A stretch of 64,000 nt of DNA, taken from contig JACKDL010000007.1 of NCBI GenBank assembly GCA_020633555.1, forward strand, positions 93,821 through 157,820. The letters run 5' to 3'. Source of the stretch: Myxococcales bacterium. GTDB taxonomy: Bacteria > Myxococcota_A > Bradymonadia > UBA7976 > UBA1532. The first letter of the stretch is position 1, and each line of letters opens with the position of its first letter. Positions 18,222-30,227 of the stretch are shown in pieces. The position numbers were made by a program, and so were the translations under genes. The notes beneath the pieces are model-generated. The model ran no database searches and was not told the DNA's origin. It saw nothing but the letters and a program-made list of their open reading frames with translations.

Positions 18222-19181
18222 TCAGACGCTGAGGGACTCGCGCTGGACCAGCCAGCCCAGCTCCTCGGCCTTCTCGACCATGTCCTCGTCGCCCTTATCG
18301 AACACGATGGACAGGCCTTCGCAGTTCTCCAGCAGCTCGAAGTCGTTCATCGAGTCGCCCAGGGCCAGCACGGGGCTGCGGCCCACGGTGTCCAGGAACA
18401 TCTCCAGCTTGCCCTCGCCAATGGGCCACGGCTCCTCGGGGCGGTCGGTCATGCTGCCGCCCTGGAGCTGCAGCTCGATGCCCAGGCAGCGCTCTTCGGG
18501 GAAGTTCAGCCGCCGGGCCAGGGCCCGCAGCACGTACTGGTTGCTGCTCGAGACGATCCAGGTCTGGAAGCCGTAGGCGTCCAGGGCGCGCAGCAGGTCG
18601 ATCATCTCGTGATAGACCCGGATGCCGGTGGGCACCACCATCCCGTGGAACGGCGGACCGTGGGCGATCTCCTCCTGACCCAGCGAGCGGTCGAGCTCGT
18701 AGTCCAGGACCTCCTCCACCAGATCGGCCACCGTGCGCTCGTGCAGGCCCTTCAGCATGCGCGCGGCGAACAGGTAGGCCTGCTCGCGGTCGGTCTCGCG
18801 CAGGGTCTCGTAGACGCCGATGAGCCCGGCCCGGTAGCGCCGGTACGCGGCGGTGTCCATCACCTCGCCGTCCGAGCGGCCGGCCACGGCCTTGTAGGCG
18901 GCCTGGATGGCGTCGCGGCCCATCTTGTCGGGCACGATGTGCCAGAAGCCCCGATCGGTCTTCAGCCGGCGCCGGGTGACCATGAAGCGCAGCATGGCCT
19001 CGCCGATGTCGTGGTGGATCAGCGTCTCGTCGCAGTCCATCACCACCAGCGGGGGCTGGGCGGGGTTGTAGTCGGGGCTGTCGACGCCGTGCTTGCGGAT
19101 CAGCTCGGTCAGCGCGGCGTGGATGTGGGGCTCCCAGGCACCCAGCTGGAGGATGCTCTCGTCGTGCTCGGACTGGCTCAT
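18222..19181 (-). CDS. HAD-superfamily hydrolase
   Basis: 320 aa from MSQSEHDESILQ. HAD motif I VVMDCDETLIHHD (DxDxT). Later S/T-containing motif II region and ALGDSMNDFELL (motif IV GDxxND). Confidence 0.8.
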   Translation of the reverse strand: MSQSEHDESILQLGAWEPHIHAALTELIRKHGVDSPDYNPAQPPLVVMDCDETLIHHDIGEAMLRFMVTRRRLKTDRGFWHIVPDKMGRDAIQAAYKAVAGRSDGEVMDTAAYRRYRAGLIGVYETLRETDREQAYLFAARMLKGLHERTVADLVEEVLDYELDRSLGQEEIAHGPPFHGMVVPTGIRVYHEMIDLLRALDAYGFQTWIVSSSNQYVLRALARRLNFPEERCLGIELQLQGGSMTDRPEEPWPIGEGKLEMFLDTVGRSPVLALGDSMNDFELLENCEGLSIVFDKGDEDMVEKAEELGWLVQRESLSV

Positions 19182-19293: not shown

Positions 19294-20565
19294 TCAGCGC
19301 CGGCGCCGGCGGGCCAGCAGGGGCAGGCCCAGCAGCAGGGCCCAGGCCCAAGGGGTGCCGCGGCCGGGATCGGCCGAACAGCCCCCGCCTCCGCCGCCGC
19401 CGCCCGAGCTGCCCATGTCGGCGTTCGGGGTACCACCCATGTCCAGGGCCGGCTCTTCGCCGCCCATGTCGGCCTCGCCTGTGGCCATGTCGACCTCGCC
19501 CATGGCCATGTCGGGCTCGTCGCCGCCGCAGTTCAGGCCGGTGATCTCGTGCTCACGGGCGTAGGCGCCGCTGCCCTGGGGGCTGAACTCGAAGGTCTTG
19601 CCGTTGGTGCGGAACACCGCCGCGCTCATGCGGGCGTGCAGGCGGGTGAGGAAGCTGGCGCCCGAGGCGCTGCGCAGGTTCTCGAGGCCCTCGTCCTGGA
19701 AGGTGGTGTTGTCCACGGCGCCGGCGAACTCGGTGACGAACACCTGGGTCTGCAGCGGGGCCACCTGGGCGTCGAACTGGGCGCGGTAGTCGGTCTGGTT
19801 GGGGCCGGTGAAGGCCATGGCCCCGAAGTCCAGCTCGCGGGTCATCAGGTTGCCGTTGGCCCGCCCGCTGTCGAGGGTGAAGAACACCAGATCGGCCACG
19901 CCCTCGGGGATGGCGGTGGCGATGGGCCGGGTGCCCACCCGCAGGGCGCCGGGGCCCTCGGGCCACGTCACGCTGATGATGGGATCGAGCTTCTGCGTGC
20001 CCAGGGCGGCGGTGTCGATGTGCACCGCGATGAACATGTAGTTCTGGTTCAGGGTGTCGTCGATGGCGGCCTGCAGGGCCTCGTCGACGGTGTAGCCGCG
20101 GGTGGTGGTGAGGAACTCGGTGAGCTCGCCGGCCTCGACCTCGGCGGCCTCGAACACCCGCCCGGTGAGGCCACCCGCGGGCACGGGGCCCCACTCGTCG
20201 GCCTGCCGCTCGTTGGCGCGGGCGCCGGTGGGCATGCCGTCGCAGACGCCGTCCAGCACGGGGTGGGTGGTGTCGCTGAGCTCGTCGAGCACCGCCTGGC
20301 TGGCGGGGGACGCGGTGACGTTGTTGTCCCGCGCGTTGGGCACGTTGGGCACGGCGATGAGCCAGACGAAGTCGGCGGGGGTGCCGGCGTACTTCACCTG
20401 GGTGATGAGCTCCACCCGGTCGGCGTGGCGGACCAGGAGCGAGCGCGAGGCCTCCATGGCGATGGTGGAGCCGTCGGGCCCGACGAAGGTGCCCACGGCC
20501 CCGGCCGGGGCCACCGACAGGGCGGCCAGGCAGGCGCCCGCCACCAACCGCTTCAGTCCACGCAT
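19294..20565 (-). CDS. secreted hypothetical protein with MYXO-CTERM sorting tail
   Basis: Signal peptide MRGLKRLVAGACLAALSVAPAGA. C-terminus GGGGGGGGCSADPGRGTPWAWALLLGLPLLARRRRR is the MYXO-CTERM pattern (Gly-rich, Cys, then TM plus Arg cluster). The body may be DUF2330-like; that is my recollection, not verified. Confidence 0.65.
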   Translation of the reverse strand: MRGLKRLVAGACLAALSVAPAGAVGTFVGPDGSTIAMEASRSLLVRHADRVELITQVKYAGTPADFVWLIAVPNVPNARDNNVTASPASQAVLDELSDTTHPVLDGVCDGMPTGARANERQADEWGPVPAGGLTGRVFEAAEVEAGELTEFLTTTRGYTVDEALQAAIDDTLNQNYMFIAVHIDTAALGTQKLDPIISVTWPEGPGALRVGTRPIATAIPEGVADLVFFTLDSGRANGNLMTRELDFGAMAFTGPNQTDYRAQFDAQVAPLQTQVFVTEFAGAVDNTTFQDEGLENLRSASGASFLTRLHARMSAAVFRTNGKTFEFSPQGSGAYAREHEITGLNCGGDEPDMAMGEVDMATGEADMGGEEPALDMGGTPNADMGSSGGGGGGGGCSADPGRGTPWAWALLLGLPLLARRRRR

Positions 20566-20662: not shown

Positions 20663-22153
20663 TCAGTCCGCCAGCCGGTGCTGGAACAGCGCAGGCCCGT
20701 CCGCGCCGTCGGCGATCCAGGCCACGCGGTCGGGCCCCGCGGCCAGGTCGTCGGGGTGGACGGCGCCGGCGAACAGCGCCGCGCTCACGCCCGTGCCCAG
20801 ATCGGCGTGGCGCAGGACCCCGGCCCCCTCGTCGATCCACACCACGTGATCGCCCACCACCCGCGGCGCTCGGTGCGGCCCGGGGCTCGCGGTGATCTGG
20901 AAGCCCGTGCGGGCGCTGCCGGTCAGGGGGACGGCCCACAGGGCCTGCTCGCCCAGGGCCCACACCGCCCAGCGGGCGCCCGCGGCCGGGGGACCGCTGG
21001 GGCGCACGGGCACCAGGCCGTCATCGAAGGCGGCGCCCTGCCACAGGACGCCCTCGGCCTGCCCGCCGACCCACTGCCGGGCCGCCCACCGCTCGGGGCC
21101 GAGGGGCACCGGATCGCTCAGGGCCAGCTCGGGGGCCACGTCGCGCACGCCGCGCTGACCCCGGTCGTGGCGCTTCAGCAGTGGGCGCTCGCCCACCACG
21201 GCGTGCCACATCAGCAGGTCGTCGTGCACTGCAGGGCGCCCCGGGGTGCTCTGCCCCGTCAGGTCGAAGGCCTGGTCGGTGTCCAGGGCCCAGACGCTCG
21301 CGCGGGGACAGTGAGCGGGGCCGTCGGCGGGGGCCAGGCAGGGCTCGGGGGTCGTCAGCCAGGCCACCAGGCTCGCGCTGCAGGCGGGGTGGGCCGCGGG
21401 GATGTCCGACGTGGCGGCTTCGATGGGGCCGGCCTGCCAAGCGCCCGCGCCGTCCTCCGTCAGCCGCCACAGGGCGTCGTCGACCACCACCACCAGCTCG
21501 CCGCTGCCACACACCGCCGGGTGACGCGGGCCTGCGCCCAGGGCCAGCGGCACCTGGCAGGCTTCGTCCACCTGGCCGTCGCAGTCGTCGTCTTCGCCGT
21601 CGCAGATCTCGCCCGCCGCGGGCGCCTCGCTCTGGCCGGCGGCGGAGCTGCACGCGCGCCCCGGGGCCCCATCGGCCGCGCACTCCCAGACGCCCTGCCG
21701 GCCGCAGGCGGTGCAGTCCCCGCCCAGGTCCAGCCCCTCGTCCACGGCGCCGTCGCAGTCGTTGTCCAGACCGTCGCAGCGCTCCGAGGCGCCGGGCCAG
21801 ACGGCCGGGCGGCTGTCGTCGCAGTCCAGCAGCCAGCCGGCCAGCGGGGGGTCGAGCGGGGTGTCGCAGCGGGCCGGGGCGCAGTCGCCGTCCACGTCCT
21901 CGCAGGTCAGGTCCAGGGCGGCCACCAGGGCGCAACGTTCGGCGGGCAGGGCCGGCGGCTCGGTGCAGCCCAACCCCGCGATGAGCTGGGCCGGCGGCGG
22001 ACAGTCGGGGGTCATGTCGGGCCGGTCGGGCCGCGGGCCCTGATCGAAGCAGGGGCCCCCGTCGCACACGCCGATGCCCGACAGGCTGTCGTCGCAGCCC
22101 GCCAGGGCGGCGATCAGGGCCAGCGCCGCCCGCCAGCCGGCCCCGGGCTTCAC
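20663..22153 (-). CDS. Cys-rich lipoprotein, paralog 3 (two MopE-like CxGxDNDCDGxxDE repeats plus ~280-aa C-terminal W-rich domain)
   Basis: GTG start at 22153 overlaps the upstream stop (GTGA). The signal VKPGAGWRAALALIAALAGCDDS gives a lipobox LAGC. Repeats: CDGLDNDCDGAVDEG and CDGEDDDCDGQVDEA. The C-terminal domain carries LWRL / VWAL / LWAVPL / VVWID motifs. Confidence 0.7.
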   Translation of the reverse strand: MKPGAGWRAALALIAALAGCDDSLSGIGVCDGGPCFDQGPRPDRPDMTPDCPPPAQLIAGLGCTEPPALPAERCALVAALDLTCEDVDGDCAPARCDTPLDPPLAGWLLDCDDSRPAVWPGASERCDGLDNDCDGAVDEGLDLGGDCTACGRQGVWECAADGAPGRACSSAAGQSEAPAAGEICDGEDDDCDGQVDEACQVPLALGAGPRHPAVCGSGELVVVVDDALWRLTEDGAGAWQAGPIEAATSDIPAAHPACSASLVAWLTTPEPCLAPADGPAHCPRASVWALDTDQAFDLTGQSTPGRPAVHDDLLMWHAVVGERPLLKRHDRGQRGVRDVAPELALSDPVPLGPERWAARQWVGGQAEGVLWQGAAFDDGLVPVRPSGPPAAGARWAVWALGEQALWAVPLTGSARTGFQITASPGPHRAPRVVGDHVVWIDEGAGVLRHADLGTGVSAALFAGAVHPDDLAAGPDRVAWIADGADGPALFQHRLAD

Positions 22154-23601
22154 GGCAGCGCCTGCCGCCGTAGCGCGCCCTCGCCGTCGATCCAGATCAC
22201 CGCCTCGGGCCCGACGCCTCGCTGATCCCGGGCGGGCAGGGGCGACACCAGCGGTCGCGCCACCCCGGTCTGCAGATCCAGGCGCATCAGGGCGCCGGCG
22301 CTCTCGTCGGCCCACAGCAGCCCATCGCCCCGCAACGCCACGGCGCGGTGCGGCCCCGGGCTGGTGGTGGGCTGGAACCCCACGGCCGGCTCGCGGCTCA
22401 GATCCATGACCCACAGGCCGGCCCCTGCGTCGTAGGGCCACGCCAGCCAGTCGTCGTTCGCGGCGGGGGGCTCGGCGGCGCCGGGCTGGAGATCCAGGGC
22501 CGGATCAAGCCCCGCCGCCAGCCAGGCCACGCGGGGGACACCGGCGATCCACTGGCGGGCCACGACCCCGTCGGCCACGGGCGCCGGATCGCTCAGGGCC
22601 AGCCCCGGCTCAGGACGGGTCAGCCCGACCTCACCGGGGGCGTGGCGCACCAGGCCCGGCACGCCCTCGATGACCACGTGCCACCACAGGCTGCCCTGGC
22701 CGTCGAAGGCCAGCCCTGCGGCGGCGGTGGGCCCGGTGAGATCCACCGGCCCGTCGGCGGTGAGGCGGACCACCGAGGTGCCCACACACCGCTCGGGGCC
22801 GTCGACGGGGGCGGTGCAGTCGCCGCCCGCCAGCCAGGCGGCCTCGTCGCCTGCACACACCAGGTGATGGGCCGGGAGGGCGCCCGCGGCGGACACGACC
22901 TGGGCGGCCCAGGCGCCGTCCTCGCCGGCGTCCAGGCGCCAGACGGCGCCCTCCGCCACCACGAGCGCCCGCTCGCCGCCACAGTCCACGGGCCAGCTCA
23001 GGGCTCCGGGCGGGCCGGCCAGGGCGCAGCCCTCGTCCACGGCGCCGTCGCAGTCGTTGTCGAGGCGGTCGCAGGCCTCCGCCGGGAACTCCAGGGCGCC
23101 GCTCTGCCCGGGGGCGCTCGAGCAGGCCAGGCCGCCCTCGGACACGCCGCGGGCGCACTCCAGCTTGCCGGGCTCGCCGCACGCGTCGCAGCCGCGCCCG
23201 ATGTCGGCGAAGTCCTCGTCGGTGGCGCCATCGCAGTCGTCGTCCAGCTCGTTGCAGGCTTCGGCGGCGTCCGGGCGCACACTGGGCCGGCTGTCGTCGC
23301 AGTCGGTGAGCCGGTCGGCATAGGGCGCCAGGGCGGCGGGGAAGGCGCAGCCCGGGGCTACGAAGCAGTCGCCGTCGGCGTCCACGCACTCGGGCAGGTG
23401 GGTGGCCACGAAGGGGCAGACGGCCGCCCGCACCGGCTCGGGGGCGGTGGCGCAGCCCGTGGGCAGGTCCAGCGCGCCCCCAGGGCAGGCCGGGCCCGCC
23501 TCGTGGTCGGGGGCGCCGCCGGCCGGCTCGAAGTCCGCCGCCGAGCACGCCACCTGGCCCAGGCTCAGCGCCAGGGCGAAGAGGGGGCCGCGCGGGCTCA
23601 C
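22150..23601 (-). CDS. Cys-rich lipoprotein, paralog 2 (two MopE-like repeats plus C-terminal W-rich domain)
   Basis: GTG start at 23601 overlaps the upstream stop (GTGA), with a GAGGTG RBS. Signal VSPRGPLFALALSLGQVAC. Repeats: CNELDDDCDGATDED and CDRLDNDCDGAVDEG. The C-terminal domain is colinear with paralog 3 (AVWRLDAGEDGAW..., LLWADESAGAL...). Confidence 0.7.
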   Translation of the reverse strand: MSPRGPLFALALSLGQVACSAADFEPAGGAPDHEAGPACPGGALDLPTGCATAPEPVRAAVCPFVATHLPECVDADGDCFVAPGCAFPAALAPYADRLTDCDDSRPSVRPDAAEACNELDDDCDGATDEDFADIGRGCDACGEPGKLECARGVSEGGLACSSAPGQSGALEFPAEACDRLDNDCDGAVDEGCALAGPPGALSWPVDCGGERALVVAEGAVWRLDAGEDGAWAAQVVSAAGALPAHHLVCAGDEAAWLAGGDCTAPVDGPERCVGTSVVRLTADGPVDLTGPTAAAGLAFDGQGSLWWHVVIEGVPGLVRHAPGEVGLTRPEPGLALSDPAPVADGVVARQWIAGVPRVAWLAAGLDPALDLQPGAAEPPAANDDWLAWPYDAGAGLWVMDLSREPAVGFQPTTSPGPHRAVALRGDGLLWADESAGALMRLDLQTGVARPLVSPLPARDQRGVGPEAVIWIDGEGALRRQALP

Positions 23602-24863
23602 GGGGTCACCTCGGGCAGCGGCTGGTGTTGCACCCGCCACTGGCCGTAGCCGTCCTGCTCGGCCCAGATCAGCCGCCCGCCGCCCACGGTGGGGTGCCGG
23701 GCGCTCAGCGGGTTCGCCGTGCGGCTGCGGCGGCCCGGATCGGCGGCCCACAGGGCCTCGACCACGTACAGGCCGGGCTGGTAGCGGGCGCTGGCCACCC
23801 AGCCCTCGCCGGCCACCAACTCCACCCGGTGCACCGGCGCGTCGGCGTCCAGATCCACCGGCCCGTCCACCAAGGCGTCGCGGTCCAGCCGCCACAGGTG
23901 CTGCTGCCCGTCGGCCGTCGCCTGCAGCCAGAACAGGGACCTGCCAGCGCTGTGCAGGCGGGCCTCGCGGTCGACGGCGCCCGCCAGGGGCACGGCGATC
24001 CGGGGGGTGCAGCCCGGCCCGCGGGCCACCACCAGCTCAGTGCGCCCGCGGGCGCCGCGCTCGAACCAGGCGGCCCAGTCGGCGCCCAGGGCGGGCCCCC
24101 ACTGATCGGCGTCCCGTTGGCGGCACTGCGACAGGCCCCCGGCTCGCTTGAGCACGACGCCGTCGCGGCCCAGATCCCGTTCCACCAGCGCCAGGTCGTC
24201 CCCGGCGGCCGCCGGCTGCCGCTGGGCGGCGGGGCGGGGCAGGGGGAAGGCGGCGGCCCCTGTGGTCAGGTCGACCCGCCGCACGTTGGGCGCGGCCGCG
24301 GCGTCGGGGTTGGGCGTGACGTGATACAGCGCCGCGCCGGCCACGACGGGCTCCACCTGGGTGGGCAGCAGCGTCAGGGTCTGGGGCTCGGCGTCGGGGT
24401 GGGCCCGCGCCACCAGGGCCAGGCCGCCCTCGGCGGGCGCCAGCCACACCACGCCGGCCGCGGTGCAGAAGGCCCAGGGCGCTGCGCCCGCCGCAGGCGC
24501 CAGCTCCGTCAGGGCCGCCGGCCCCGCCTCCGTGAAGCATGTGGGCGCCGGCCGCGCGGCGTCCATGGCCAGGTCCGGGCCCGCGTCGACGGCCAGATCA
24601 GGGCCGGCGTCCTCGGCGCCGACGTCCTGGTCCATCTCGACGGTGCCGCCGGCGCCGCCTGCGCCCCCTTCGCCGCCGGCGCCGTCGGGCTGGGGCAGGG
24701 CCGGCCCACGGGCCACGCAGCGGCGGGCCACCAGATCGCACCGCTCGCGCAGGGGGTCCAGGCAGTCGGTGTCGACGGCACACTCGGCGCGCTCGGCGCC
24801 GTCGTCGAAGAACAGCGAGCAGCCGGCGAGGGCGGTCAACAGCAGGGGCCACAGGGTTCGCAT
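23598..24863 (-). CDS. lipoprotein, paralog 1 (N-terminal Cys cluster, Gly-run, C-terminal W-rich domain related to paralogs 2 and 3)
   Basis: ATG 24863 with a GAGGGG RBS. MRTLWPLLLTALAGCSLFFDD gives a lipobox LAGC. ECAVDTDCLDPLRERCDLVARRCV, then GGEGGAGGAGG, then a domain with VVWLAP / LWRLDRDA / LIWAEQDGYGQWRV. The track's 626-aa ORF is an upstream read-through. Confidence 0.65.
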   Translation of the reverse strand: MRTLWPLLLTALAGCSLFFDDGAERAECAVDTDCLDPLRERCDLVARRCVARGPALPQPDGAGGEGGAGGAGGTVEMDQDVGAEDAGPDLAVDAGPDLAMDAARPAPTCFTEAGPAALTELAPAAGAAPWAFCTAAGVVWLAPAEGGLALVARAHPDAEPQTLTLLPTQVEPVVAGAALYHVTPNPDAAAAPNVRRVDLTTGAAAFPLPRPAAQRQPAAAGDDLALVERDLGRDGVVLKRAGGLSQCRQRDADQWGPALGADWAAWFERGARGRTELVVARGPGCTPRIAVPLAGAVDREARLHSAGRSLFWLQATADGQQHLWRLDRDALVDGPVDLDADAPVHRVELVAGEGWVASARYQPGLYVVEALWAADPGRRSRTANPLSARHPTVGGGRLIWAEQDGYGQWRVQHQPLPEVTP

Positions 24864-24871
24864 CGTGCCCC

Positions 24872-26377
24872 TCACCGCAGCAAGAACCAGACCAGCCCCA
24901 CCGCGGCGGTGGTGAGCCCGATGCCGAGCAGCACGTCGGCGGTGAGCGCCTGGTCGTCGCGCTCGGCGAACAGATCGTCGAGCCGGCGCCGGTCCACCGC
25001 GGGCGAGGTGTAGCCGTCGATGTCGCGCTGGGTGGCCAGCGCCTGGGCCCCGGCCACCAGACCCCCGGCCGCGATCAGCCCGCCCACCGCCAGCGTGATC
25101 TGCGGGCCCGGCCCGTCGGGCGCGGCGGCGCGGGCCGGCCCCCCGGGCGTGCGCCGCCAGCGCACCTCCAGCGGCAGCGGCGCGCAGCCTCGGGGATCGC
25201 CGCAGGTCGGCACCACGAACTGGCCCAGCGTGAGCCCGAGCCCGGGGGCGGTGGCCTGGTAGACGTGGCGCCCCGGCGGCAGGTGGAAGCCCGCGGGGTC
25301 CACCGCCTGCTGGGCCACCACCAGCCGGCTGATGGCGACGGGCGCCTCGGTGCCGTCCAGGCCCTGGGCCGTCAGGGGGTGGGGGGCCGTGATCCGGGCC
25401 GCGTGCCGCGCGTCCGCGCAGCCGGTGGGGCGCGGCACGGCCACCGCCACGGGGGCGGGGTGGGGCCCCTCGGGCCACAGGGTGACAGTGCGCGGCCCCC
25501 AGGGGCCCGGGCCGGCGCCCGCCAGGGGCACGCCGGGGGGCTCGGTGGTGACCTCCAAGCTCACCGGGCAGCGGCGCAGCGCCACCTGGATGGGCCCCCC
25601 CTCGGCGGGCAGGGCGACCCGCGCCGCGAGGTAGCCGGGGGCCTGGACCGTCACTGTGCCGCCGCCCCGCAGCCCCTCCACCGGGATGGGCCCCTCGGGG
25701 CCCACCAGGGCCACACCGTCCACGGCCGCGCCGTCATCGGTGACGGTCAGGGTCACGGGGCACGCCTTGCCGGGCACGGCCACGGCGCCGCCGCCCAGGG
25801 TGACGCCTTGGGGCGGCGCGGCGCACCGGCCCACGCGGCCTAGGCGCCAAGGCCCGGGTCGCAGGGTCAGCCGGTGGCTGCCGGCGGGCAGCTCGAGCTC
25901 GATGGGGGCCTCGCCGTCCAGCGGCGGCGCCAGGCGCACCGTCCCCCCGGGGCTGTTCAGGGTCACCGGGCGTGCCCCCGCCGCGGCGGGCCAGCCGGGG
26001 GCGTCGGGCACGCGGGCCCACGCGTTGTCCAGCCGGGCGGCGGCCCGCTTCTCGGCCATGGCGGCGGGGGCCAGGGCCTGGGCGGTGACCAGGTGACGCA
26101 CCGCTTGCCAGGCGTGGTGGGCGCGGTCCGCCGCCGGTCGACTCAGGAAGAAGGCGGCCGAGCCGGCCACGTAGTGGGCGCAGGCGCGGGCGGCAGGCGT
26201 GCCCTCCGCTGCGGCGGCCTGCGCCTCGGCGAGCACGGCCGGCCAGTCAGCGGGGCCGGCGGCGTCCAGGCGGGTGAACAGGGCGGTGTGGGTGGGGGGC
26301 AGGGGGCCCTCGCAGGGGTGCGCCCACGCGGCGGCGCTAAGGCCGAACGCGACAGCGAACGCGGCGAGTCGCCCCAT
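24872..26377 (-). CDS. secreted PEGA-domain protein with C-terminal TM anchor
   Basis: Signal MGRLAAFAVAFGLSAAAWA. Repeated approximately 60-aa units such as VTLTVTDDGAAVDGVALVGPEGPIPVEGLRGGGTVTVQAPGYLAARVALP and VSLEVTTEPPGVPLAG...VTLWPEGPH match the PEGA beta-sandwich pattern. C-terminal hydrophobic helix LTTAAVGLVWFLL. Confidence 0.6.
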   Translation of the reverse strand: MGRLAAFAVAFGLSAAAWAHPCEGPLPPTHTALFTRLDAAGPADWPAVLAEAQAAAAEGTPAARACAHYVAGSAAFFLSRPAADRAHHAWQAVRHLVTAQALAPAAMAEKRAAARLDNAWARVPDAPGWPAAAGARPVTLNSPGGTVRLAPPLDGEAPIELELPAGSHRLTLRPGPWRLGRVGRCAAPPQGVTLGGGAVAVPGKACPVTLTVTDDGAAVDGVALVGPEGPIPVEGLRGGGTVTVQAPGYLAARVALPAEGGPIQVALRRCPVSLEVTTEPPGVPLAGAGPGPWGPRTVTLWPEGPHPAPVAVAVPRPTGCADARHAARITAPHPLTAQGLDGTEAPVAISRLVVAQQAVDPAGFHLPPGRHVYQATAPGLGLTLGQFVVPTCGDPRGCAPLPLEVRWRRTPGGPARAAAPDGPGPQITLAVGGLIAAGGLVAGAQALATQRDIDGYTSPAVDRRRLDDLFAERDDQALTADVLLGIGLTTAAVGLVWFLLR

Positions 26378-26999
26378 CGTCTCCCCCCTCCGCCGAGCCC
26401 ACCGTCAGGGTGAGCCGCAGCGCCTCATGGGCCCCCCGGGCCGTGCGCAGCGCCCGGGCCAGCGCCGCGGGGCAGCGGGGCCCCTGGCACTGGCCCTGAT
26501 CGTAGCCGGGCGTCAACCACTCGGCTGTGAACAGCCGTTCACCCCCGGCGGCGCCCCCACAGTCCACCTGGCCCCACACGGGCCCGTCGGCCACCGGGAA
26601 CAGGGTGCCCAGGCCGCGCAGGTCGACGCGAGGGGGCCGCGCAGCGCGCAGGGCCGCCCAGCCGTCGGCGGCGATGGTCAGCCCATCGGCGGCGGGGGTC
26701 AACCGCGCCGGATCCAGGCGCCGGCCCAGCCAGGCGCGGCCCCCGGCGTCCAGCCGAGTCCAGGCGTCGGCGGGATCATCGTCCGTCAGCCCGGCCCAGG
26801 CTGCCGCCGCCGCGAAGCGAGCGGCCGGCGTCCCCCCACGAATCTGCAGCCCGGCCGCGTCGGAGGTCACCTGCACCGCGCTCAGGTCGGCGGGCCAGCG
26901 GGCCGGAGCCCGCAGCGCGCCCGCCTCGGGCGAGCGGGCGTCCGCGGGGGCGGCGTCCGTGGGGCGGCGTCGGGCGCGGCCGCGTCGCGGGGACGGCAT
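26337..26999 (-). CDS. hypothetical; either a separate small secreted protein or, more likely, the frameshifted extracellular C-terminal domain of the upstream Ser/Thr kinase
   Basis: The downstream two-thirds (AWAGLTDDDPADAWTRLDAGGRAWLG...FTAEWLTPGYDQGQCQGPRCPAAL...) is compositionally protein-like. The kinase-frame tail after its TM helix is R/G/P low-complexity. This ORF overlaps the kinase C-terminus by 224 bp and the PEGA gene start by 41 bp. Confidence 0.3.
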   Translation of the reverse strand: MPSPRRGRARRRPTDAAPADARSPEAGALRAPARWPADLSAVQVTSDAAGLQIRGGTPAARFAAAAAWAGLTDDDPADAWTRLDAGGRAWLGRRLDPARLTPAADGLTIAADGWAALRAARPPRVDLRGLGTLFPVADGPVWGQVDCGGAAGGERLFTAEWLTPGYDQGQCQGPRCPAALARALRTARGAHEALRLTLTVGSAEGGDDGATRRVRCRVRP

Positions 27000-28698
27000 G
27001 AGGCCGGGCGTCCACCGTTGCGGCCGGGGCAGGGGCGGGCGATGGGCCGGGCCACAGCGCCCAGCCGGCGCCGGCCAGGGCCACCAGCCCGGCCACCAGC
27101 CAGGGCCGGCGACTCGTGGGCATGGCCAGCGCCTCCGTGGGCGGGGCGCTCGGGCCCACGGTGGCGTCCAGCGCGCCCTCGGACAGCCGGTCCAGGGCCC
27201 GGGCCACCTCGCCGGCGTCAGCGGGCCGGGCCGCCCGATCCAGCGCCAGGCACTGGTCCACCAGAGCGCACAGGGGGGCCGGCAGGTCGGGCGCCACCTC
27301 GGCCAGCGGCCGCACGCCCCGGTCCAGCAGCACCGCGAAGATGGCCTGCTGCGATTCGCCCGGGTTCGCGCGCACGCCCGACAGGCACTCGTAGATCACG
27401 GCCCCCAGCGCGTACACGTCGGCCCGGGCGTCCACCCGCTCGCCCTTGAGCTGCTCGGGGGGCATGTACTGCAGCGTGCCCATCATCCGGCCCGACTGGG
27501 TGTGCACCTCGGGCTGCGCCAGCTTCGCCAGCCCGAAGTCCAGCAGCTTCACGAAGTCGTCGGCGTCGCCGCGGCGCACCAGCATGATGTTGTCGGGCTT
27601 GAGATCGCGGTGGATCACTTGCCGCCGGTGGGCCTCGGCCAGGGTCTGTGCCACCACCCGCCCCACGCGCAGCGCCTCGGCCCGGGGCAGCGCGCCACCC
27701 GCCAGCCGGTCGCCCAGGGTCACCCCGTCCAGCAGCTCCATCACCAGGAAGGGCTCGCCGCGCACGGGGTCGTGGCCCACGTCGAACACCCGCACCACGT
27801 GGTGGCTGGTCTCGGCCAGCGCCTGGGCCGCCCGCGCCTCCTGGATCATGCGGGCGCGCAGCCCGGCGGCCTCTTCCTCGGGCAGGCCCTCGGGCAGCTT
27901 CAGCACCTTGATGGCCCGCTGCACCTTCAGCCGGGTGTCCTCGGCCAGGTAGACCTCGCCCATGCCGCCCTGGCCCAGCCGCTTGAGCAGGCGGTAGCGC
28001 CCGCTGTCCAGGGCGTCGCGGCCGGCGATGGCGGCGCCGCAGGCGGGGCAGAAGGCGGCGGTGGGGTCGTCCACCTCGGCCCCGCAGGCCGGGCAGCGCC
28101 GCGCCGCCGCGGCGGGCAGGCGGGGCAGCACGGTGGCGCCCAGATCCCCCGCGGCCCACCCGCCGACGCCGGCCGCGGCCGCCGCCAGATCGCCCGCATA
28201 GACGGGTCCTGCGTCCAGCAGCCGCCTGGCCACCGCCCCGAGCAGGGGGCTGGGCCCCTGACGGTTCTCGGGCTCGGCGCGGGCCCCCACCGCCCACCCG
28301 ACGGACGCTGCGGCGCTCGGCGACGCGGGGCAGTCCAGGATCACCCCGGCGCTGCGCGGGAGCTCCGCGAGCAGCTCCTCCAGCGCCAGGCCCGTGCGCT
28401 CCAGCCGGCTGGCCCGTGCGTCCCGGGGCAGAAAGGCCCCGTCCCGCACGGCGCCCGACAGCAACAGCAGCGGCGGCTGCGGGCTGGCGGCCAGCCAGCT
28501 CAGGCCCTCCAGCAGGTTCGCCAGCAGGGGCCGGTGGCGATCGTCGGGGGCGTCGTCCAGCAAGGCGCGGACGCGGGCGCCGCCCTCGTCCAGCCGCTGC
28601 GCCAGCCGGCGGAGCACGGGGGTCACCCCGGGGTGGTCGGGCAGGGCCGGATCCAGCCAGGCGCGCGCGCCGACAACGAGGGCCCTGCGTTCGGTCAT
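26776..28698 (-). CDS. Ser/Thr protein kinase with N-terminal ~200-aa unknown domain, zinc-ribbon, Hanks-type kinase domain and one TM helix
   Basis: Zinc ribbon CPACGAEVDDPTAAFCPACGAAI. Kinase motifs: GQGGMGEVY (Gly loop), AIKVLK (VAIK), HRDLKPDNIML (catalytic loop), DFGLAK (DFG), TLQYMPPE (APE). TM helix RRPWLVAGLVALAGAGWALW. The C-terminal boundary is uncertain (see 26337..26999). Confidence 0.85.
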   Translation of the reverse strand: MTERRALVVGARAWLDPALPDHPGVTPVLRRLAQRLDEGGARVRALLDDAPDDRHRPLLANLLEGLSWLAASPQPPLLLLSGAVRDGAFLPRDARASRLERTGLALEELLAELPRSAGVILDCPASPSAAASVGWAVGARAEPENRQGPSPLLGAVARRLLDAGPVYAGDLAAAAAGVGGWAAGDLGATVLPRLPAAAARRCPACGAEVDDPTAAFCPACGAAIAGRDALDSGRYRLLKRLGQGGMGEVYLAEDTRLKVQRAIKVLKLPEGLPEEEAAGLRARMIQEARAAQALAETSHHVVRVFDVGHDPVRGEPFLVMELLDGVTLGDRLAGGALPRAEALRVGRVVAQTLAEAHRRQVIHRDLKPDNIMLVRRGDADDFVKLLDFGLAKLAQPEVHTQSGRMMGTLQYMPPEQLKGERVDARADVYALGAVIYECLSGVRANPGESQQAIFAVLLDRGVRPLAEVAPDLPAPLCALVDQCLALDRAARPADAGEVARALDRLSEGALDATVGPSAPPTEALAMPTSRRPWLVAGLVALAGAGWALWPGPSPAPAPAATVDARPHAVPATRPRPTPPHGRRPRGRPLARGGRAAGSGPLARRPERGAGDLRRGRAADSWGDAGRSLRGGGSLGRADGR

Positions 28699-28754: not shown

Positions 28755-30227
28755 ATGAGCGCGCTGGATCTCCGCACCGTCATCGAAGGCGTCGGCGCCC
28801 GCCTGCTGGCGCTGCTGCAGGCCGCCGACGACCGCAGCGAGCCCGTGGTGCGGCAGGCCTCGCCCGACACCCTGGCCCTGGCCTTCCAGGCGGCCGGGGC
28901 GGGCCTGCCCATCGACCGCGATCAGGCCCCCACGGGCACCCCCGCCTTGCTCGCCGCCGTCGACGAGGTGCTGCGCTGGAGCGTGCGGACGCTGCACCCG
29001 CGCTTCTTCAACCAGAACTTCGCCGGGGCGGATCCCGTGGCCGTGCTGGGCGACTGGGTGGGCGCCGCGCTGAACACCACGCAGGCCACCTTCGAGGCCG
29101 CGCCCGTGTTCACCCTCATGGAGCGCGAGGTCATCGCGGGCCTCGCCGCCCGCGCCGGCTTCGCCACCCACGAAGGCCTGTTCCTGCCGGGCGGCAGCAT
29201 GGCCAACCTCCACGCGCTGCAGCTCGCCCGCTGGCGCGCCCAGCCCGACAGCCTGCGCACGGGCAAGGTGCCAGGCCGGCTGGTGGCCTTCACCAGCGCC
29301 GAGGCGCACTACTCGCTGGGCAAGGCCATGGCCCTGCTGGGCCTGGGCAGCGACAACCTGGTGGCCGTGCCCACCGGCCCGGACGGCGGCATGGACGTGG
29401 TGGCGCTCGACAAGGCCATCCGCCAGGCACGGCGGCGCCAGGAGCGCCCCTTCTTCATCAACGCCACCGCCGGCACCACCGTGCGCGCCGCCTTCGACCC
29501 TTTGCGGGATCTGGCCGACGTGGCCGACTTCCACGACCTGTGGCTGCACGTCGACGGCGCCTTCGGGGCCTCGGCCCTGTTCAGCGGCCGCGAGCGCCAC
29601 CGCATGCGCGGCGTGGCCCGTGCCCACAGCCTCGCCTGGAACCTGCACAAGATGGTCGGTGCCACCCAGCAGTGCGCCGCGTTCCTGGTGCGCGAGCCTG
29701 GGCTGCTCGGGCGGGTGTTCGGCGGCGGGGCCGACTACCTGTTCCAACCCGACAAGCCCCACGCGGGCCTGGACAGCGGCGATCTCACCTACCACTGCGC
29801 GCGCCGGGTGGACGCTCTGAAGGCGTGGTTGCTGTGGAAGGCCCGCGGCGACGCCGGCCTCGGGGCCCGCGTGGAGCGCGCGGTGGATCTCGCTGAGCAC
29901 GCCGAGGGGCGGATCCTGGCTGACGACCGCTTCGCCCTGGCCGCCGCCCGTGGCTTCACGAACGTCCTGTTCTGGTGGGTGCCGCCGGATCTGCGCCCGC
30001 TGGACCTGGAGGCCCCGGGCGTGGCCCCGCGGCTGCACCGGATCACCACCGCCCTGAAGGACCGCATGCAGCGCGACGGCCAGACCATGCTCAGCTACAT
30101 GCCCCTGGGCGAGCGGCCCAACGCCCTGCGGCTGCTGTGCCTGAACCCGGCCACGACCCCGGCCGACGTCGACCACGTGCTGGCCCTCATCGACGGCTAC
30201 GGCCAGGCGCTGCCCCGGCCGGTCTGA
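28755..30227 (+). CDS. pyridoxal-phosphate-dependent group II decarboxylase (glutamate/cysteine-sulfinate/diaminobutyrate decarboxylase family)
   Basis: 490 aa. SLAWNLHKM carries the PLP-lysine of the group II decarboxylase signature (S..N.HK). It also has the family's HVDGAFG motif. It is divergent from the kinase gene, with a 56-bp spacer. Confidence 0.8.
   Translation: MSALDLRTVIEGVGARLLALLQAADDRSEPVVRQASPDTLALAFQAAGAGLPIDRDQAPTGTPALLAAVDEVLRWSVRTLHPRFFNQNFAGADPVAVLGDWVGAALNTTQATFEAAPVFTLMEREVIAGLAARAGFATHEGLFLPGGSMANLHALQLARWRAQPDSLRTGKVPGRLVAFTSAEAHYSLGKAMALLGLGSDNLVAVPTGPDGGMDVVALDKAIRQARRRQERPFFINATAGTTVRAAFDPLRDLADVADFHDLWLHVDGAFGASALFSGRERHRMRGVARAHSLAWNLHKMVGATQQCAAFLVREPGLLGRVFGGGADYLFQPDKPHAGLDSGDLTYHCARRVDALKAWLLWKARGDAGLGARVERAVDLAEHAEGRILADDRFALAAARGFTNVLFWWVPPDLRPLDLEAPGVAPRLHRITTALKDRMQRDGQTMLSYMPLGERPNALRLLCLNPATTPADVDHVLALIDGYGQALPRPV

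Follow-up and report, generated by a model that had tools for sequence, protein, structure and literature searches.

Analysis of a 64,000-nt stretch of contig JACKDL010000007.1 from a Myxococcales bacterium (hereafter the window; GC content ~75 %) revealed a minus-strand operon in which a predicted Hanks-type Ser/Thr kinase, encoded by the first gene (26337–28698), is combined with four exported proteins: the membrane protein A (24872–26377; 501 aa) and the lipoproteins B (23598–24863; 421 aa), C (22150–23601; 483 aa), and D (20663–22153; 496 aa). We tentatively favour the reading that these genes specify a conserved envelope signalling unit, a “split” β-propeller receptor kinase whose propellers are borne by lipoproteins that are separate from the kinase.

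An indication that these genes act together is their conservation. Twelve distinct loci were collected by looking up contigs and by scanning the genomes of GTDB species with a profile of A, and the order kinase–A–B–C is kept in every one of them as far as the contigs reach (tblastn), which bears out the grouping of these genes in a preliminary description of the window made from the sequence alone. All 12 loci derive from metagenome-assembled genomes of freshwater and engineered habitats, labelled Myxococcales, Nannocystaceae, Bradymonadia, or simply “bacterium”; they represent at least ten distinct Myxococcota lineages, none of which is cultured. Between loci, the cassette proteins share 30–57 % identity and the junctions are overlaps or tiny spacers, while the flanks differ. 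Full-length matches in a word-based search of 5.8 billion proteins numbered four for A, two for B, and six for C/D; such searches badly undercount these low-complexity, high-GC proteins and were complemented by a genome pattern scan and exhaustive HMMER searches. The A, B, and C/D families were met essentially only in this gene context.

The four genes for A–D lie where the preliminary description had placed them, and the GC content at the third codon position (GC3) of their open reading frames (ORFs) is 0.94–0.95, compared with 0.84 in the long plus-strand shadow ORFs, which singles out the minus-strand frames as coding. The earlier account of their junctions holds for B/C and C/D, where GTGA start/stop overlaps are present, but the supposed 9-bp overlap between A and B is an 8-nt spacer (TGA-GGGGCACG-ATG). 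The kinase gene belongs to the same operon: in its restored form, it would share 41 nt with the beginning of A, matching the arrangement at a related locus (L002). A terminator scan found none at or between the gene junctions, with the sole minus-strand consensus match falling inside gene A, and promoter and terminator scans returned nothing informative at such GC content. The products A, B, C, and D all carry Sec or lipoprotein signals, and their mature forms contain 8, 8, 20, and 22 cysteines, respectively. All of these counts are even, which is consistent with disulfide-bonded periplasmic proteins.

A Pfam scan of the kinase gene product gave matches to Pkinase (PF00069; 137 bits) and Zn_Ribbon_1 (26.4 bits), and an alignment showed that the HRDLKPDN and DFG motifs are intact in the window and conserved in eight relatives. 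The combination of the hidden Markov model (HMM) match with HRDLKxxN and DFG motifs identifies the product as a Hanks-type (eukaryotic-like) Ser/Thr kinase. The protein consists of a cytoplasmic N-terminal domain of ~195 aa, the Zn-ribbon, the kinase domain, one transmembrane helix, an Asp/Ala/Pro-rich linker, and a periplasmic domain of ~190 aa. The N-terminal domain (residues 1–195; 28114–28698) weakly resembles metacaspases and Peptidase_C14 (PDB 4f6p, E 0.076; Pfam E 0.004 in one of eight members) and mostly lacks conserved His and Cys residues at the catalytic positions; it may therefore be a pseudo-caspase domain fused to the kinase. The periplasmic domain (26340–26900) has a conserved block, GDRLxTAxWxTxGYxxGxC, and four cysteines that are invariant; profile searches recovered no Pfam or PDB relative for it and no propeller similarity. 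A divergent 490-aa ORF on the plus strand (28755–30227) starts 56 bp from the kinase start codon.

The kinase gene is not read in a single frame in the window. Homologous kinases of related loci are 810–852 aa in length and match the window by tblastn in two frames, with the N-terminal part at 26986–28698 and the C-terminal part, in a different frame, at 26340–26966, which indicates that the gene is frameshifted here and would end at 26337. It is a single continuous ORF in nine relatives, and deletion of any one base within ~26899–27098 generates a 786-aa ORF that ends at 26337. The preliminary description was thus right to place a kinase with a Zn-ribbon and a Pkinase domain upstream of A, but its coordinates (26776–28698) correspond to a truncated reading. 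The frameshift falls in the low-complexity Asp/Ala/Pro-rich linker, downstream of the transmembrane helix. A contig from an independent assembly (L016; 99.87 % identical) starts exactly at this site, where it has a C-run of different length; its extra 5' C was considered as a repair of the frame and rejected, as a single insertion fails and a single deletion works. The frameshift could reflect either an assembly error or a real pseudogene, and we judge an error to be at least as likely.

Protein A has a signal peptide that is predicted to be cleaved between AWA and HP, followed by a TPR-like helical domain (residues 28–122; nt 26012–26296) whose TPR matches include BamD, YbgF, and the YfgM complex. 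A structural model with a mean local confidence (pLDDT) of 82.6 features approximately four transthyretin-like β-sandwiches across residues 136–406 (nt 25160–25972). The array looks like other tandem rows of Ig/transthyretin-like domains. Foldseek related the β-sandwiches to the transthyretin-like domains of carboxypeptidases D and M (1qmu, 1uwy, and 5aq0; probability 0.98–0.99) and to the tandem-domain TIE protein 6fwv (E 1.3e-8), and the model thus assigns to A a transthyretin-like/carboxypeptidase-regulatory β-sandwich fold. A had previously been termed a PEGA-domain protein, a label that Pfam does not support: no family matches A at E ≤ 1, PEGA (PF08308) was not detected, and there was no NCBIfam match either. 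Six homologues of A reached at best 11.5 bits against PEGA (E 0.29; cutoff 20.8) and 13.7–18.8 bits against CarboxypepD_reg (cutoff 32.3). PEGA is usually placed in the transthyretin-like structural class. The model and the Foldseek matches therefore make “PEGA-like” tenable for A at the level of fold or clan only.

The C-terminus of A forms a two-helix membrane hairpin (residues 424–500; nt 24875–25108) enclosing a conserved loop of ~35 residues. This loop contains an IDxYT-like motif and two invariant residues, Tyr456, which precedes a Thr in several members, and Arg473. The loop would face the cytoplasm, which makes it a candidate site for docking of, or phosphorylation by, the kinase. An EACC1 match in the loop region of one A homologue (E 0.008) was judged spurious or unsupported.

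C and D are clearly paralogous (42 % identity over almost the full length, E 3e-64) and share one architecture, as had been proposed, in which a Cys/Asp-rich stalk precedes a C-terminal β-propeller. Each stalk carries the two MopE-type units noted earlier, and the corresponding Pfam model, PF11617, matches two stretches in both C (52.4 bits) and D (62.9 bits), well above its cutoff of 27. In C, the motifs are located at ~23215–23304 and ~23032–23118 and the propeller at 22153–23025; in D, the motifs are at ~21737–21826 and ~21563–21649 and the propeller at 20666–21556. The propeller assignment is supported by a strong structural match to solved propellers, with four-stranded blades in a radial arrangement, and the fold is shown for D. 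The preliminary description had named a match of the C-terminal domains to a well-known family with an assigned function as a finding that would count against it, and half of this is the case, as the fold is a known one, the β-propeller, that comes without an assigned function. Inspection of the lipoboxes against [LVI][ASTVI][GAS]C showed a canonical LAGC in D and an atypical GQVAC in C, where the n-region is also weakly charged; an orthologue of C (P0133) has LLAGC. Besides the annotated start of C (start region 23545–23601), there is an alternative GTG start at 23640.

When the propeller profile was used for an exhaustive HMMER search, 38 representatives were obtained at E ≤ 1e-30; almost all of them, including all 29 that were inspected fully, are lipoproteins of ~450–600 aa with the stalk-plus-propeller layout. 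The remainder is made up of fragments, a single read-through ORF, and two proteins with multiple repeats. Weaker matches (E 1e-30 to 1e-3) number more than 1,000 and are multi-repeat surface proteins of the TIGR04275 type with the consensus PAISGDRIVWxDxRNGNxDIYMYDL. The last blades of C/D resemble the repeat of these “GDRIVW” proteins, but most C/D blades are degenerate, D scores 25.5 bits against TIGR04275 (beta_prop_Msarc) on one repeat, and C/D stay below the cutoff of 85; the canonical family also lacks the lipoprotein signal, the MopE stalk, and the kinase-operon context. A home-made repeat HMM detected a single blade in D and either one or two blades in C and D of locus L001, whereas C of the window, C of locus L005, and the B family scored at the level of shuffled controls. 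The only match of the C/D-family profile among PDB sequences was the MopE motif.

B has a canonical lipobox (LAGC). Downstream of this, a four-cysteine mini-module (ECx5Cx7Cx6C) and a linker that is acidic and rich in Pro lead to a C-terminal domain of ~315 aa (nt 23601–24551). This cysteine cluster differs from that of C and D, contrary to the earlier statement that B retains it, whereas the reported absence of DNDCDG units is borne out by the lack of a PF11617 match. Pfam and NCBIfam scans of B and its homologues gave nothing above threshold (an Ezh2_MCSS match to B, 19.3 bits with a cutoff of 27, was judged spurious or unsupported), and a search of PDB sequences with the B-family profile gave no family match. 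B has no BLASTP similarity to C or D. Comparison of an 11-sequence B profile with a 36-sequence C/D profile by hhalign, however, gave a probability of 91 % (E 1e-6) over 190 columns that pair residues 211–414 of B with 206–411 of D. A second, register-shifted alignment (83 %) is what repeated blades would give, and controls with A remained below 0.5 %. These richer profiles replaced an earlier comparison of 4 B with 9 C/D sequences, for which the probability was 10 %. With the home-made “GDRIVW” repeat HMM, B was not separated from the controls (3.1–3.3 bits versus a shuffled-control maximum of 2.0). We infer from the profile similarity that B is a distant propeller relative of C and D. The description of the lipoproteins as three paralogues consequently applies to the close pair C/D, with B as a remote relative.

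The second MopE-type lipoprotein is patchily distributed: it is present in the window, in loci L001, L002, and L011, and possibly in L009, whereas the closest relative (L007; GCA_030424955.1) lacks it, as do the other single-copy loci. A neighbour-joining tree groups C of the window with the single copy of L007 and indicates two separate duplications. D is thus a lineage-specific duplicate of a C-type gene, and the sequences indicate that such duplication has occurred at least twice independently. Because the second copy is patchy, the conserved core consists of the kinase, A, B, and one C-type lipoprotein. The heteromeric complex of three lipoproteins envisaged in the preliminary description is therefore not a conserved feature, as the second MopE copy arose by separate duplications and is missing from L007 and the other single-copy loci.

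These data can be combined in a split receptor kinase. A single-pass kinase would hold its catalytic domain in the cytoplasm and a small disulfide-bonded domain in the periplasm. A would sit in the inner membrane by its C-terminal hairpin anchor and extend into the periplasm with a rod of approximately four sandwiches and a TPR-like protein-binding domain. B, C, and D would each hold a propeller on a stalk, which in C and D would be disulfide-rich and stiffened by DxDxDG-type (MopE/TSP3-like) repeats that most likely bind Ca2+, and in B would be formed by the four-cysteine knot and the acidic Pro-rich linker. The propellers could then serve as ligand- or partner-binding heads that A bridges to the kinase ectodomain, and their occupancy would alter cytoplasmic kinase activity, possibly also through the cytoplasmic loop of A. 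A more specific version, a modular multi-subunit receptor kinase in which exchangeable, duplicable propeller co-receptors dock via A onto a Hanks kinase that combines a cryptic ectodomain with a pseudo-caspase domain, is doubtful. Several points weigh against a receptor kinase of this kind. Owing to the frameshift in its kinase gene, the module of this genome might be undergoing decay; the ectodomain and N-terminal domain of the kinase appear to belong to no recognizable family; and the propeller of B is deduced from profile similarity. In addition, the complex and the direction of signalling are themselves inferred, and the clustering with a kinase would fit equally well if the kinase regulated A–D rather than being regulated by them.

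Other explanations of the operon can be weighed against the same data. The preliminary description had proposed a metal-sensing or metal-handling module, in which the DNDCDG repeats of C and D would bind copper and the kinase would respond to metal status. We regard this as very improbable. The proposal derives from a family name. PF11617 does score above threshold on C and D, and weak retention of Cu(II) on immobilized metal affinity chromatography has been attributed to the first 24 residues of MopE* (PMC3423442). In MopE, however, Cu(I) is bound with high affinity by His132, His203, and kynurenine-130, and the N-terminal 46 residues of MopE* are invisible in the crystal, either disordered or cleaved (PMC3423442); the PF11617 region (residues 15–45) falls within this segment and outside the copper site. 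Residues 15–45 of MopE* (2vov_A) are also the sole PDB match of the C/D stalk in profile and single-sequence searches. These searches found no counterpart in C or D to the MopE* core with its His132/His203/Trp130(kynurenine) site, so that the 30-residue motif is what C/D have in common with MopE/CorA of methanotrophs. C and D contain 2 Met each and 7–11 His with no His/Met clusters, the ligands on offer being Asp, Asn, and disulfide-bonded Cys. B, which is devoid of the motif, is retained in the cassette to the same degree as C, and no metal-homeostasis gene (cop, cus, or cue-type) is conserved beside the cassette in the 12 loci. Hundreds of other, unrelated secreted proteins of Myxococcota also contain PF11617, in fusion with lectin, fibrinogen, or LamG domains, and such promiscuous fusion fits the expectation for a structural module. 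MopE* is stabilized by CaCl2 (PMC3423442). Tucker et al. aligned the PF11617 consensus with the C-rich region of teneurins (PMC3278476), and a 1.5 Å structure of the teneurin C-rich domain contains three Ca2+ on conserved acidic residues, in a geometry like that of thrombospondin type-3 (TSP-3) and LDL-A modules, together with three disulfides (PMC9058538). As in C/D, an LDNDxDGxxD-type acidic loop lies between cysteines in the teneurin C-rich domain and in thrombospondin type-3 repeats, and in teneurins this module adjoins a transthyretin-like domain and a β-propeller. HMMER searches against PDB sequences found no match between C/D and teneurin, and the likeness, which comes from the published alignment, is to be taken as a lead. 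By this analogy, a structural repeat stabilized by Ca2+ and disulfides is the best reading of the motif. The Pfam name “Cu-binding_MopE” is accordingly not evidence for copper, and the structures point to a Ca2+/disulfide structural module.

A second explanation is that A–B–C(–D) assemble in the periplasm or outer membrane for a structural, adhesive, or trafficking purpose, with a TPR scaffold and propeller lipoproteins that loosely recall BamB/BamD or TolB/CpoB, and that the kinase switches this assembly on or off by phosphorylating the loop of A. The conserved cytoplasmic loop, with its invariant Tyr456 and, in several members, an adjacent Thr, and the TPR matches to BamD, YbgF, and the YfgM complex would suit such a machine, propeller lipoproteins occur in machines of this type, and a DUF2330/MYXO-CTERM surface protein is often encoded downstream of the cassette. 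Yet no BamA, Tol, Pal, or other machine component is conserved nearby in the 12 loci, and the conserved periplasmic domain of the kinase suggests that it receives information rather than only sending it. We rate this explanation, the main rival of the split receptor kinase, as unlikely, although far less so than copper handling. That the genes have no joint function and are adjacent by chance in a gene-dense, high-GC genome might be argued from their common and promiscuous domains and from the wealth of kinases and lipoproteins in Myxococcota. It would leave unexplained why the order and the tight junctions recur in 12 of 12 loci at 30–57 % identity amid differing flanks, and why the A, B, and C/D families were met almost solely in this context. 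Because synteny is conserved across divergent lineages, we consider chance adjacency excluded, the least credible of all the explanations.

The statement of the preliminary description that no characterized system has this layout still stands after searches of Pfam, NCBIfam, PADLOC, the PDB, and the literature, none of which returned one. Propeller sensors fused to bacterial Ser/Thr kinases are established, PknD of M. tuberculosis being an example, and receptor kinases with propellers include PknD (NHL ectodomain), PkwA of Thermomonospora (WD40), and plant ACR4/CRINKLY4. In contrast to the PknD type, the propellers of the present module are not fused to the kinase but are borne on Cys/Asp-rich stalks by separate lipoproteins, of which each operon encodes one to three; a membrane protein with TPR and β-sandwich domains is always present, and the kinase has an unrelated four-cysteine ectodomain. 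The BAM complex (BamD and BamB) and the Tol-Pal system (CpoB/YbgF and TolB) likewise pair a TPR protein with a propeller, but they are unrelated in sequence to the present proteins. Neither BamB nor TolB ranks with the best propeller matches, these systems contain no kinase, and the genes for BamA, TolA, and Pal are unlinked to the cassette. PADLOC returned only generic kinase domain matches (PD-T4-6 and mad6 models) and nothing for A, B, C, D, or the DUF2330 protein. A known anti-phage defence system was therefore rejected, as the PADLOC signal amounts to generic kinase similarity.

Downstream of D, on the same strand, the MYXO-CTERM protein and HAD hydrolase of the preliminary description were recovered by Pfam and NCBIfam matches. 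The first (19294–20565) is a DUF2330 protein (PF10092, 35.7 bits) with a MYXO-CTERM signal (TIGR03901, 25.2 bits; cutoff 20), and the second (18222–19181) is a cytoplasmic HAD-IB family phosphatase (PF12710, 53 bits) that falls just below the cutoff of TIGR01488 (43.5 bits; cutoff 45). Clustering of flanking ORFs across the 12 loci identified these two genes as the sole further conserved neighbours, in five loci. The DUF2330 gene follows the cassette in 5 of the ~9 loci with sufficient downstream sequence, the HAD gene being found in the same five, which makes the DUF2330 linkage facultative. The HAD protein, with identities of 88 % (to that of L007) and 65–68 %, is far more conserved than the cassette proteins (30–57 %). 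The flanks of loci L010, L012, and L015 contain extra Ser/Thr kinase paralogues within a few kb of the cassette, and at L002 an extracytoplasmic function sigma/anti-sigma (zf-HC2) pair is located upstream.

The folds in this operon (Hanks kinase, TPR, transthyretin-like sandwich, β-propeller, and MopE/TSP3-like repeat) are all known; what is new is the conserved split into kinase, scaffold, and lipoprotein propellers and its restriction to uncultured Myxococcota. Its value accordingly lies in the architecture and not in a new fold or chemistry, and the occurrence of such a module is no great surprise in a phylum rich in kinases and lipoproteins. Myxococcota encode very many eukaryotic-like kinases, few of which have known input signals, and the operon provides a concrete, testable example of a kinase that may receive envelope signals through separate co-receptor subunits. 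If the more specific, doubtful version with exchangeable propeller co-receptors is correct, the module would represent a prokaryotic analogue of eukaryotic co-receptor/receptor-kinase complexes that is confined to uncultured Myxococcota.

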